64,000 bases of DNA from Escherichia phage RCIP0319, in the sequence record PV464738.1. One strand, 5' to 3'. A program made the translations under genes and the position numbers. Position 1 is the first letter of the stretch; every line of letters starts with the position of its first letter. This document shows, piece after piece, positions 53,742 through 56,487 of this stretch. The notes beneath the pieces are model-generated. The model saw only the letters and a list, made by a program, of their open reading frames with translations, ran no database searches and had not been told where the DNA came from.

Positions 53742-53788
53742 AAAAGGTGAGCTAAATGCTTGCCTTTTCTTTTATCAATACTTATACT
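53742..53788 (+). terminator. Terminator hairpin overlapping a sigma70-like promoter (copy 1 of a duplicated module)
   Basis: AAAAGGTGAGC-TAAAT-GCTTGCCTTTT hairpin with G-U wobbles and T-run; its descending arm supplies TTGCCT, then 17 bp to TATACT. Confidence 0.5.
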
Positions 53789-53819
53789 CTTTTCATCAAG
53801 ACTAACAAGCGAGGTGATT

Positions 53820-54137
53820 ATGATTTACTTAGGAATGGACCAGGAACTAGAAGCGACGCTGATTGACGTTTCAAACGTAGAATTGAACACAGCTGTACAC
53901 ATCAAGCCTTGGCCAGAGACGCATCCCGACGTAGTTGTACCCGTTGCACCTTGGACGCGTTATGTAGCCATTGACGATGACGGCCTTGTCCATTGTTACT
54001 CAGAAAAACCTGTGTACTTAAAAAAATACAATCAATGGATGATGAACATTGCATCAAGGGTGCGCTGTTGCGGCGAAGTCGGTCTGGAAGGATGGAGCTT
54101 CAAGGCTAGTGAATCGTGTGTCGAGGTGCAATTATGA
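53820..54137 (+). CDS. Hypothetical protein
   Basis: About 105 aa from an ATG with GAGGTG RBS. Confidence 0.4.
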   Translation: MIYLGMDQELEATLIDVSNVELNTAVHIKPWPETHPDVVVPVAPWTRYVAIDDDGLVHCYSEKPVYLKKYNQWMMNIASRVRCCGEVGLEGWSFKASESCVEVQL

Positions 54138-54352
54138 ATGCCGCGCTGGGTAAGTTGTCTTTCAACAAGCGCAATGAGCTGCGCATGGTATCGCGCTTTC
54201 AGTTTGTATTGAATGCGATGTCAAATCTTGCCATCACAATGCTTCGCGCCGATTGCCCTGCTGAAAAGCGTGAAGCTTTATTTGAGCGCCACAAACAATT
54301 ACAAAAGGCTGCGTTTAAGCTGCAGCAATATGCTATGGAGTATGCAAAATGA
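54134..54352 (+). CDS. Hypothetical protein
   Basis: 72 aa ORF. Confidence 0.35.
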   Translation: MNAALGKLSFNKRNELRMVSRFQFVLNAMSNLAITMLRADCPAEKREALFERHKQLQKAAFKLQQYAMEYAK

Positions 54353-54732
54353 GAATGAAACGTTGTCCTTATTGCCACGATGTTATGCATCTTCCACATG
54401 AAGAGTTTGTGCAGCACATCACTCATTGTGATAAGAATCCTAAGAGCGAAAGCCAACTTGAAGAAAGAATGTTCTTGGTGTCATTCAAAGCTTCTGCTTA
54501 TGAAGCGCAACGTTCTTACGGCGCACCAAGTACGATTTACTGTCCAACAACATTGAGAAGCGACATCGACTCAATTCAGCTTGCAGCCTGGATTAACGTT
54601 AAGGAAGGAATCACGCCGCACTTTATTGCGCGCATCCAATACCAGATTCTACAAATCAAGCTCGAATACAACCGTGACATCGTTGAAATCAAGGTATTGT
54701 CTATCACGCCAATGAATAAGGAGTTGCCGTGA
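54349..54732 (+). CDS. Hypothetical protein with N-terminal zinc-finger-like motif
   Basis: 127 aa; CPYCHDVMH...HITHCD. Confidence 0.4.
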   Translation: MRMKRCPYCHDVMHLPHEEFVQHITHCDKNPKSESQLEERMFLVSFKASAYEAQRSYGAPSTIYCPTTLRSDIDSIQLAAWINVKEGITPHFIARIQYQILQIKLEYNRDIVEIKVLSITPMNKELP

Positions 54733-54989
54733 ACAAGGGTCCGATGACTAAGCTGGCCGTTGCCGCGCGGAAACTTCGACAAGCCGTTAATGGGTCGCGG
54801 CCTGTGGCGTTAACACTCGACGATGCAAAGGCACTGGTAGAGCTACTCGACGAGCACAACCGACGCAAGAATCTGGAGAACACACTACGTTGGCGCGTTA
54901 CTCCAGCCGGACGGGAGAGTGAAAAGAAGGCCTACTTGCGGCGCAAACTAAGGTCGGTCGGCCTACACGAAGAAGCTAATAACATCTAA
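54729..54989 (+). CDS. Hypothetical protein
   Basis: 86 aa ORF, start uncertain. Confidence 0.35.
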   Translation: MNKGPMTKLAVAARKLRQAVNGSRPVALTLDDAKALVELLDEHNRRKNLENTLRWRVTPAGRESEKKAYLRRKLRSVGLHEEANNI

Positions 54990-55134
54990 CAACTGGTGAG
55001 GTAAATATGAAACATATAGGATGGCTTGTGAACGGTGTATTTTATAGAATCGAAGATGAGAAAAGAGTGGACGCAATAAGAAGTTGTTCTCCAAATCCTC
55101 CTCAAATTCTTCCTATCTATGCAGAGGAGGATGT

Positions 55135-55611
55135 ATGCATAAAGTATTGATGACATCACTCTTAATATTAATGTATGCAGTCGCTAATCTAGCGGTCGTA
55201 ACGTTCGGCGTTTGGATCACCCCGTTAAACGCGCTTGTCATCATAGGCGCTGAGATAGTCATAAGGGACCGTATCCAATATAAATACGGCTTTGCGTATT
55301 CCATATTCAGTTGCTTGGCAGCAGGTGTTGTCACAGTGCTGATAACGCCATCCTCATTAAAGATTGCAATCGCCAGCGTAGCCTCAATCGTAATCGCAGG
55401 CATTGTGGCAGGAATAGCATTCAAATTAAGGGAAGGATCATTCTATAAAAAGTCTTTCTCAGCAAACATATTTGCTGCTGCAGCCGATTCACTAGTATTC
55501 CCTTTGGTCGCGTTCGGTGCATTCATGCCTTACGTTACAATGGCTCAATTTTGCGCAAAAACATTAGGTGCCAGCATCATTCTTTTGATTATGAGGAAGA
55601 TAATTAAATGA
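55135..55611 (+). CDS. yhhQ: YhhQ/VUT-family membrane transporter (putative queuosine-precursor transporter)
   Basis: About 158 aa polytopic membrane protein; SFSANIFAAAADSLVFPLVAFGAF parallels the conserved YhhQ segment as I recall it; shorter than bacterial YhhQ. Confidence 0.45.
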   Translation: MHKVLMTSLLILMYAVANLAVVTFGVWITPLNALVIIGAEIVIRDRIQYKYGFAYSIFSCLAAGVVTVLITPSSLKIAIASVASIVIAGIVAGIAFKLREGSFYKKSFSANIFAAAADSLVFPLVAFGAFMPYVTMAQFCAKTLGASIILLIMRKIIK

Positions 55612-56435
55612 CAATCCACTTTCATGGATCACCAATTACTGGCGGGAAAGGTCCGAAGGCTGCCATAGCATCATACCGTGACGGAGGCGCTTTTATATCA
55701 TTTGCCGCGGCACGCCAAATTGATTTGGCATTTGAATTCTCAAAGACGGTATGCATAGACAATGGCGCATTCAGCATGTTTAACTCTGGGAAGGTGCCTG
55801 ACTGGAATAAGTTCTATTTTGAATTCTTGCCTCGTTGGATAAGTAACGAAAAACTAAGGTTTTTCGTAATTCCTGATGACATAGAAGGCGGCGAAAAGGA
55901 GAATGACGCCCTTTTGGATTCAGTACCAAGTGATATGCAATCAAAGGGAGCTCCTGTTTGGCACATGCACGAGTCAATCGAAAGGCTTTTACGCCTTTGC
56001 CGTGACTATGAATACGTGTGCATAGGGTCATCAGGCGAGTATTATGCAATCCGTTCTCAAAAATGGAAGGAGCGGATGAAGGCCGCGTGTATGGCTATAA
56101 TCGAATCAGGGTCAAAGGCAAAGATACACGGATTAAGGATGCTTGATGGAAGGGTATTGGGCAATTACCCACTCGACCAAGCAGATTCAACGAATATTGC
56201 AATCAACGTTGGCAAGTACGATATGAAGATGCCAGAGGTAACGGTGGAGGCCTGTCGTGCACTAACGCACCCGACTAAATGGGTTGAGCCGCGCCACTCA
56301 TATGATGCGCTATCCAAGTTCATCGCCAATGGAGGTGACAAGGCAGACATCGCAGCGTACCGCGCGGCAGTATTAAGAGGAGCTATAGAGTCCGTCAAAC
56401 CGCCTGGAAGAGAAGAGTGGTATAAATCTCAATAA
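55608..56435 (+). CDS. dpdA: DpdA-like DNA-guanine transglycosylase (TGT superfamily), putative
   Basis: 275 aa; VCIDNGAFSMF resembles the TGT catalytic DSGGFQ motif; immediately downstream of the YhhQ-like gene with 4-bp overlap. Confidence 0.45.
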   Translation: MTIHFHGSPITGGKGPKAAIASYRDGGAFISFAAARQIDLAFEFSKTVCIDNGAFSMFNSGKVPDWNKFYFEFLPRWISNEKLRFFVIPDDIEGGEKENDALLDSVPSDMQSKGAPVWHMHESIERLLRLCRDYEYVCIGSSGEYYAIRSQKWKERMKAACMAIIESGSKAKIHGLRMLDGRVLGNYPLDQADSTNIAINVGKYDMKMPEVTVEACRALTHPTKWVEPRHSYDALSKFIANGGDKADIAAYRAAVLRGAIESVKPPGREEWYKSQ

Positions 56436-56441
56436 CCAATA

Positions 56442-56487
56442 AAAAGGTGAGCTATATGCTTGCCTTTTTATTTGCCTGTATTATACT
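56442..56487 (+). terminator. Terminator hairpin overlapping a sigma70-like promoter (copy 2 of the duplicated module)
   Basis: AAAAGGTGAGC-TATAT-GCTTGCCTTTT, nearly identical to the element at 53742; followed by TATACT. Confidence 0.5.

Follow-up and report, generated by a model that had tools for sequence, protein, structure and literature searches.

Putative terminator–promoter modules as probable favoured recombination junctions and capture of a DpdA cassette in the Wifcevirus phage RCIP0319

Two near-identical hairpins occur in the genome of Escherichia phage RCIP0319 (sequence record PV464738.1), each in the gap between the stop codon of one gene and the start codon of the next, and they bracket a group of genes that ends with a DpdA-type guanine transglycosylase. 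The question raised by this locus is what these hairpins do and how two copies came to stand on either side of the same gene set. It was addressed in a stretch of 64,000 nucleotides (nt), referred to here as the window, where the two composite units, which we name T1 (approximately 53737-53822) and T2 (approximately 56436-56518), lie on the + strand among the rightward-directed small genes that make up an array in the early region of a Wifcevirus myophage. The first-pass annotation of this DNA regarded them as modular insulators that may have been copied along with gene cassettes. Comparison with related phages leads to a different view of their origin: T1 and T2 are probably two old copies of one composite, made up of an intrinsic terminator, a sigma-70 promoter, a 5' untranslated region (5' UTR) and a ribosome-binding site, and they probably serve as favoured recombination junctions.

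The T1 hairpin (53742-53768) reads AAAAGGTGAGC-TAAAT-GCTTGCCTTTT and is followed by the U-tract TTTTCTTTTAT. The T2 hairpin (56442-56468), AAAAGGTGAGC-TATAT-GCTTGCCTTTT, has the same stem and is followed by the U-tract TTTTTATTT. The near-identity described in the first-pass annotation is therefore correct, 26 of the 27 positions being identical in the general form AAAAGGTGAGC-TAWAT-GCTTGCCTTTT. T1 and T2 are also the only matches to this hairpin in the window when up to three mismatches are allowed (none in 100 shuffles), and a repeat finder returned the same pair, 2700 nt apart. Their similarity extends beyond these 27 nt to about 90 nt, and covers the hairpin, the U-tract, a -35 and a -10 element, the motif TTCATCAAG, the ribosome-binding site and ATTATGAnTTAC.

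The stem consists of a 7-base-pair (bp) G+C core (GGUGAGC/GCUUGCC) with two G.U pairs and an A:U extension, and it is closed by a 5-nt loop. Folding of the + strand RNA gave -13.6 kcal/mol for T1 (z -3.7) and -17.8 kcal/mol for T2 (z -5.0), values that no shuffle equalled; the full stems amount to -13.0 and -16.3 kcal/mol, respectively. The core has a predicted stability of -8.7 kcal/mol on the + strand and only -3.2 kcal/mol on the - strand because two stem pairs are G.U, and the predicted structure is suited to rightward transcripts. The upstream stop codons end at 53736 and 56435, 5-6 nt 5' of the hairpins, so that each unit presents a G+C stem-loop after a stop codon and a U-rich tract after the stem. 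T1 passed the rule of our terminator scan; T2 is missing from the scan list because the scan counts the tail only after the extended stem. Both hairpins are already annotated as 'terminator' in the records of the related phages WFH and WFC (in WFC as putative, with the value -10.10), and through these records the hairpin half of the modules is present in the databases. Our literature search found no paper on these hairpins or on the promoter half, nor a Wifcevirus transcriptome paper. No Rfam family matched the whole window at gathering scores or positions 53600-56700 at E values up to 1, and a search for tRNA genes found none.

The 3' arm of each hairpin carries the hexamer TTGCCT, which was proposed earlier as the -35 box of a promoter with TATACT 16-17 nt further on, and this arrangement holds in both units. 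In T1 the putative promoter (53760-53788) has its -35 at 53760-53765, a 17-nt spacer and its -10 at 53783-53788. In T2 (56460-56487) the -35 lies at 56460-56465 and the -10 at 56482-56487, with a 16-nt spacer. Both promoters match 9 of the 12 sigma-70 consensus bases with a spacing inside the 16-18 nt range. The -10 is followed in both units by an identical TTCATCAAG, located at 53792-53800 in T1 and starting at 56491 in T2. Its A (53795 and 56494) is the predicted transcription start in view of its position, 7 nt 3' of the -10 in both cases. Further downstream, T1 contains the ribosome-binding site GAGGTGA with an ATG (53811-53822), which is the start of gene 53820-54137 (phrog_1972), and T2 contains the ribosome-binding site AAGGAG (56502-56507) in front of the ATG at 56516 of gene 56516-56818, where the element ends at 56518. 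These start codons lie 52 and 48 nt past the hairpins, in reasonable agreement with the approximately 45 bp given before, and 32 and 29 nt past the -10 elements.

The pattern TTGCYT-N16-18-TAWAMT occurs at 10 sites in the window, as compared to 0.28 expected, and no shuffle reached 10. The sites are located at 2213, 6949, 8878, 12894 (-), 21302, 42709 (-), 46414 (-), 47620, 53760 and 56460, and eight of them lie in the correct orientation 25-45 nt 5' of a ribosome-binding site with a start codon. These eight precede the portal gene (2213), the head protease/scaffold gene (6949), gene 21331 (21302), a leftward operon with ThyX (42709), the leftward gene of a divergent early region (46414), gene 47677 (47620) and the genes after T1 and T2 (53760 and 56460). 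The pattern thus appears to be the standard promoter of this phage, in use for structural as well as early and replication genes, and its enrichment supports the promoter half of the two modules. The earlier claim that the same -35 flavour recurs at the portal, scaffold and modification-operon promoters consequently stands for the degenerate form TTGCYT, with the ThyX operon at 42709 as the third case, but not for exact TTGCCT, which is found elsewhere between genes only at 6949. Nor is TTCATCAAG a general start-site motif, as exact copies are absent at the other promoters. Two of the other promoters are wrapped in stem-loops centred on the -10, one at 21302-21360 (+; -26.7 kcal/mol, z -6.3) and one at 42680-42736 (-; -19.1 kcal/mol, z -3.3). 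In the former, the 3' arm holds the ribosome-binding site AAGGAG of the next gene, which would therefore be hidden in read-through transcripts but not in transcripts initiated at the promoter. Promoters combined with stem-loops are thus a recurring feature of the phage.

The region is 86-91% identical at the nucleotide level to that of Wifcevirus phages of E. coli and Shigella, which include WFH, WFC, ECML-117, FEC19 and Bas98-101. A 95-nt T2 query matched two places in 27 of the 28 GenBank Wifcevirus records and three in that of Bas101, where the third match is a 24-27-nt repeat of the 5' UTR and not a full module. Both modules are found at the same positions in all 28 genomes, and the pair is also present in metagenomic and Sequence Read Archive (SRA)-derived relatives. 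In an alignment of 32 module copies from 17 genomes, TTGCCT, TATACT and TTCATCAAG are identical throughout. T1 and T2 have different spacers and discriminators (the sequence behind the -10), which are conserved within each site. Divergence between the sites together with conservation within them points to an old duplication in which functional elements were held constant, and argues against recent copying. Across 14 relatives the modules are 95-99.6% identical and their flanking genes 82-91%; for the T1 hairpin the figures are 99.6% and, for its flanking genes, 82-84%. A metagenome scan for the exact stem with any loop returned 12 stretches, four of which are Wifcevirus sequences with the usual arrangement; the others are unrelated contigs with the same stem, other loops and then a T-run, which we take as chance matches or convergent terminators in a very large database. 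A search of IMG/VR for diverged stems with compensating changes (AAAAGGNNAGC-N5-GCTNNCCTTTT) was uninformative, the palindromic pattern matching at least 120 unrelated contigs.

This conservation bears on the alternative that survives best, namely that the hairpins are terminators or attenuators alone, that TTGCCT and TATACT do not form a working promoter, and that read-through accounts for expression of the genes behind them. Only 4 of the 6 bases of the -35 agree with the consensus, matches resembling the promoter consensus are no more common in this region than in shuffled sequence, and the modest core (-8.7 kcal/mol) makes read-through plausible. Yet TATACT and TTCATCAAG lie outside the hairpin and are nevertheless invariant in the 32 copies, whereas the sequence between them drifts, and the TTGCYT pattern is far more frequent than expected and is sited before genes. 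We therefore regard a role in termination only as unlikely.

How the two copies came to flank the gene set is best seen at the left border of the genes that end with DpdA. Homology to the relatives ends at 54989-55006 and resumes at 56441, which leaves an insert of 1.43 kb that contains three genes described below, here called the cassette. In the relatives T2 directly follows the four small genes that come after T1, and the distance between T1 and T2 is accordingly short (1252-1539 nt). At the place occupied by T2 in the relatives, the window has GGTGAGGTAAAT (54995-55006, + strand), a decayed 5' arm and loop of the ancestral T2 that matches GGTGAGCTAAAT at 11 of 12 positions and immediately precedes the ATG at 55007; the complete T2 comes after the cassette. 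The remnant before the cassette and the full T2 behind it place the cassette inside the old T2 hairpin, and the leftover 5' arm looks like a ribosome-binding site of the ATG at 55007. On this evidence a cassette that resembles the type found in Drexlerviridae was inserted into a pre-existing second hairpin without bringing a module of its own. The junctions are identical in two SRA-derived Wifcevirus contigs (L092 and L224), the other two of the three cassette-bearing genomes; an intermediate with the cassette between two full modules was not found among the genomes compared.

These junctions, together with the distribution of the modules, also argue against the inference of the first-pass annotation, by which a mobile module had recently been duplicated or had come in with the cassette. 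The close match of the hairpins, the similarity over some 90 nt and the variation of adjoining gene content among relatives are what such a unit would leave behind. However, both copies occupy fixed orthologous positions in 28 of 28 GenBank relatives, not one of which has the DpdA cassette, and the diverged spacers and discriminators, conserved within each site, indicate an old pair under selection. Moreover, the genes downstream of T1 and T2 are not paralogues (BLASTP E 1.8, unrelated), there is no third full copy, as the extra match in Bas101 is confined to its 5' UTR repeat, and the cassette interrupts the old T2 hairpin and contributes none. Mobility of the module is thus improbable and largely refuted, and copying of the unit along with cassettes is not supported.

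Other gains and losses of genes end in the modules as well. In WFC, SP13 and Bas100 an extra 195-nt gene lies in T1 with a 21-nt direct repeat, AAATGAATATCAAAAAGGTGA, on both sides, and a half hairpin precedes its start; this is an independent event of the same shape as the cassette insertion in the window. Bas101 has an extra gene after T2, flanked by the above-mentioned repeat of the T2 5' UTR, and CWP003 has one after T1, between repeats that resemble the ribosome-binding site. Direct repeats of module sequence thus flank four insertions: the cassette of the window and those in WFC/SP13/Bas100, Bas101 and CWP003. Losses and replacements also occur. In RCIP0363 gene 56516 is lost and T2 is joined straight to the next gene at ATGAGT, and in Bas99 the stretch lost in RCIP0363 is replaced by 295 nt, the start of which resembles the next gene. 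The hairpin arm AAAGGTGAG and the module ribosome-binding site GAGGTGA have GGTGA in common, which would offer a simple microhomology route to such joints.

For a quantitative estimate, indels were counted in the 51.1-58.3 kb region in 14 relatives, which gave 14 distinct indel or replacement events over 19 gene junctions. Six of the 14 end in a module (binomial p ~0.002 if events were spread evenly across junctions; p 0.03 when the three at the 3' edge of T2 count as one). Sequence divergence around the cassette also changes at T2. Compared with L092, the window has 3 mismatches in the 1742 nt that close with the DpdA gene and 93 in 1101 nt past T2; its identity to L224 is 99.4-100% from 54729 through T2 and 86.6% thereafter. 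The identical junctions and the jump in divergence at T2 indicate a single insertion of the block, followed by its transfer between diverged backgrounds with T2 as the right crossover. The modules are thus favoured, not exclusive, junctions where cassettes are gained, lost and swapped. That they might be the only recombination junctions was considered and dropped, given that allele classes switch at nearly all gene boundaries.

The array as a whole (52824-58070), when compared with 15 relatives, is a gene-by-gene allelic mosaic. The identity values of most genes form two or three classes; those of gene 53404 are 78, 87 or 99%, and those of gene 56982 are 69 or 93-96%. Many insertions in this array have 13-33-nt direct repeats at gene starts.

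Several observations weigh against the combination of terminator, promoter and favoured junction proposed here. Eight of the 14 indels lie elsewhere than at the modules, and the switches between allele classes are found at nearly every gene junction of the array rather than at T1 and T2 alone. Compensatory changes in the stem, which would attest to selection on pairing, were not seen across the relatives: the stem is identical in 31 of 32 copies, and the sole variant, in T2 of phage SP13 (position 4708 of L011), changes GAGC to GATC and breaks a pair. The lack of covariation can be explained by the -35 inside the 3' arm, which freezes the sequence of both arms. The stem core is only moderately stable, so that T1 and T2 may attenuate rather than stop transcription. 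Finally, generic scans of the region showed no enrichment over shuffled sequence, with 38 promoters against 30.4 and 21 terminators against 18.3; what carries the argument is conservation together with the specific TTGCYT pattern. The G to T change in SP13 reduces the core stem from -8.7 to -2.0 kcal/mol and reflects either natural weakening of the terminator or an error in sequencing.

The invariance of the stem raises the further possibility that the inverted repeat acts as DNA, either as a repressor operator over the -35 or as a recombination site like the attC of integrons. It is the stem sequence itself that is invariant, not merely its pairing, and two independent insertions lie inside the hairpin with the 5' arm duplicated. 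As DNA, however, the repeat has 2 mismatches in 11 positions, and these are exactly the pairs that are G.U in the + strand RNA, which points to a role as RNA, while the invariance of both arms follows from the location of the -35 in one of them. Other insertions lie in the 5' UTR or ribosome-binding segment of the module or at ordinary gene junctions and have direct repeats of 13-33 nt. Such varied sites with direct repeats fit recombination driven by homology or microhomology better than recombination at one specific site. A candidate recombinase was not found beside the modules, though none was searched for. A function of the repeat at the DNA level is on these grounds very improbable. The weakest alternative, that the T2 region is coding and that the gene after it starts inside the hairpin, is extremely improbable. 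In its favour, the loop and the first stem base together create an ATG or GTG that has AAGGTGA before it and shares the frame of gene 56516; our open reading frame (ORF) listing gives 56447-56818, and the kaset, AV128 and Bas101 records call a long ORF. In T1, however, the equivalent start does not share the frame of gene 53820. A better start is provided by the conserved AAGGAG-N8-ATG at 56502-56518, and the extension would translate the U-tract and the promoter, where conservation follows the elements and not the codons.

Two known signals were considered and rejected. In T4 middle promoters a MotA box, TGCTT, lies 11-13 nt from the -10; the loop and 3' arm of the hairpin read AAATGCTTGC, but at 19 nt from the -10. 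Processing by RNase III requires a stem longer than the 11-15 bp available here, which is too short for such a site.

The combination of terminator and promoter is well supported by the sequence, from which we also infer that transcripts end and begin at the modules, at which base they begin, that the next genes are insulated and how recombination proceeds. In the mechanism that we propose, RNA polymerase arriving from the long upstream operon would transcribe the A-tract, the stem-loop and the U-tract, and the transcript would be released a few nt past the hairpin. The G.U pairs would make the terminator work in one direction only. In duplex DNA the 3' arm reads GC-TTGCCT-TTT and would act as -35, which together with TATACT 16-17 nt further on would start a new transcript at the A of TTCATCAAG, approximately 25 nt further. 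The next gene block would in this way be under its own promoter, shielded from read-through and promoter occlusion. As the longest conserved non-coding sequences in a hyper-variable array, the ~90-nt units would also be preferred recombination junctions, at the edges of which genes are inserted, deleted or replaced in different relatives. In the lineage of RCIP0319, a three-gene cassette of the Drexlerviridae type landed inside the T2 hairpin. It would now form the end of the upstream transcription unit, and the leftover 5' arm would serve as its ribosome-binding site.

This mechanism can tentatively be extended to a role of the modules as plug-in sites, a proposal that we consider possible rather than likely. 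A gene that enters the hairpin would keep a ready ribosome-binding site, given the resemblance of the 5' arm AAAGGTGAG to GAGGTGA, and it would join the upstream transcription unit and end at an intact terminator–promoter. An anti-restriction DpdA cassette could have passed by this route from siphophages of the Drexlerviridae type to a myophage lineage, and then have spread between diverged Wifcevirus phages with T2 as the right crossover.

Of the systems described before, the closest kind appears to be the promoter-early stem-loop (PeSL) of T4-like phages (Arbiol et al. 2010, PMC2839356; Comeau et al. 2014, PMC4122927). Both elements are composites of about 100 nt that begin at a stop codon and reach as far as the ribosome-binding site and start codon of the following gene. 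In both, a sigma-70-like promoter is joined to a stem-loop with G.T pairs, which in PeSLs is a terminator or attenuator. In one PeSL subclass the stem-loop covers the -35, as in T1 and T2 (PMC2839356). The setting is similar as well: hyper-variable regions with small genes without assigned function, where indels and replacements between relatives end at the element. For PeSLs, termination, initiation and modular shuffling have been shown by experiment (PMC2839356, PMC4122927), and so has the formation of mini-circles (PMC2839356), whereas the Wifcevirus modules are known from their sequence. A genome with PeSLs has about 50 of them, of varied sequence, whereas T1 and T2 are two near-identical copies, accompanied by two or three other promoters in unrelated stem-loops. 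Further differences are that the host phage is a Wifcevirus and not T4-like, that the -35 is TTGCCT and not the consensus, and that there is no clear AT-rich block 5' of the -35, the upstream sequence being the 5' arm and loop AAAAGGTGAGCTAAAT, which is partly A-rich. With only two copies and in a phage that is not T4-like, the modules are best called PeSL-like rather than members of the T4-phage PeSL set.

Two other comparisons are of use. A canonical intrinsic terminator has a G+C-containing stem, a short loop, a U-tract and an upstream A-tract that extends the stem. T1 and T2 share the stem, loop, U-tract and upstream A-tract with such a terminator placed before a promoter. They differ from it in carrying the -35 inside the 3' arm and in that the whole unit is duplicated and conserved as a block. 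Lambdoid phages carry morons, extra genes between conserved neighbours, and short conserved boundary sequences have been invoked as their crossover points in modular exchange. Inserted genes and a conserved short boundary sequence are likewise found at the Wifcevirus modules, but a classic moron brings its own promoter and terminator, whereas the DpdA cassette has neither and would borrow the resident terminator and the upstream promoter.

The genes that neighbour T1 and T2 are all hypothetical. The first part of the bracketed set consists of four small genes on the + strand without assigned function (53820-54137, 54116-54352, 54349-54732 and 54729-54989), which also occur in the relatives. 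The three cassette genes follow on the same strand. The first (55007-55150) encodes a 47-residue protein without a family match that is 57-60% identical to the product of an ORF at the same position in the Drexlerviridae phages Opt-719 and LHE71. The second (55135-55611) encodes a 158-residue membrane protein that is tentatively VUT/YhhQ-like, with a match to phrog_4899 (E 2.7e-22) and 54-56% identity to phage proteins annotated as 'VUT family protein'. The Pfam family Vut_1 scores 8.9 bits (E 2.5) against it, below the cut-off of 27.2, and E 0.07 and 0.019 against two of its homologues; the label is thus weak and depends on the annotation of proteins of 54% identity. The third gene (55608-56435) encodes a 275-residue DpdA-type guanine transglycosylase, which matches phrog_887 'queuine tRNA-ribosyltransferase' over residues 1-273 (E 4.2e-71) and in tblastn is 61% identical to the gene of Opt-719 and 38-45% to phage genes annotated as queuine tRNA-ribosyltransferase. 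Searches of Pfam, NCBIfam and PDB sequences gave nothing significant for either DpdA or the VUT-like protein.

The earlier description of a gene set that ends with a yhhQ/dpdA-like pair is hence right with respect to the bracketing by the modules and the dpdA label, and weakly supported for yhhQ. The pair by itself is not the unit, as the cassette consists of the 47-residue ORF, the VUT-like gene and the DpdA gene, and the same three genes with the same order and overlaps occur in Drexlerviridae siphophages. Within Wifcevirus the cassette is absent from all 28 GenBank genomes and nearly identical in L092 and L224, and IMG/VR contained only DpdA relatives at up to 47% identity. The literature searched did not mention this trio, either in general or in Wifcevirus. 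Genes for preQ0 synthesis were not seen nearby, the screen for the pathway covering 10 other proteins of the window. Hutinet et al. (2019) treat phages that have DpdA, in some cases with YhhQ, and lack preQ0 synthesis genes as a separate 'third group' (PMC6884629), the modification status of which is hard to predict (PMC6884629). The pairing of a DpdA-type transglycosylase with a VUT/YhhQ-like membrane protein is shared with that group (PMC6884629), and this likeness concerns the cargo and not the module.

In the Drexlerviridae sequences L017 (1165, 2817 and 3822) and L018 (2814 and 3459) a repeated motif, AATAGCACGAATTGCTAAAC, occurs between small genes and also brackets the DpdA cassette. 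It comprises a stop codon, a small hairpin and a promoter-like part, in which TTGCTA, a likely -35, lies ~17 nt before TATAGT-like hexamers. This suggests a possible analogue of the Wifcevirus modules and a design that is widespread.

The modules provide a map of predicted transcription-unit boundaries for a little-studied phage genus with practical relevance. According to the BASEL paper, which refers to a report that two isolates replicate very fast, Wifcevirus is understudied. Composite terminator–promoter cassettes, so far described from T4-like phages, would have an analogue in an unrelated group of myophages. As an element the module is ordinary; of greatest use is the capture of a DNA-modification cassette, documented to the junction. 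For phage engineering, the modules are natural candidate sites for payload genes. For annotation, over-long ORFs in several GenBank records hide T2. Coding sequences that start inside the hairpin or cross T1 or T2, and that are probably over-called, were noted in kaset (L012, 4520-4876), AV128 (L223, 3511-3873), Bas101 (L008, 4511-4822), Bas98 (L009, 3227-3319) and Bas99 (L014, 3234-3326).

The window contains several other repeats. Repeats of ATCCGTATC and GATACGGAT cluster at 6666-6694 and 6791-6910 in a 290-nt AT-rich gap before the head protease gene, and an exact 29-mer, GAATCTTACGGATGATACGGATGATACGC, recurs 54 kb away at 60688-60716 beside another AT-rich gap; these sequences may be iterons or related to the genome ends. 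A perfect tandem duplication (24244-24497, two copies of 127 nt, 100% identical) is located in the structural gene block, where it spans the junction of ORFs 23358-24392 and 24406-26223, and could be real or an assembly artefact. A 53-nt direct repeat with 77% identity (57563-57615 and 59598-59650) lies inside two different small genes of the early region (57230-57733 and 59346-59774) and suggests that their proteins have a segment in common.

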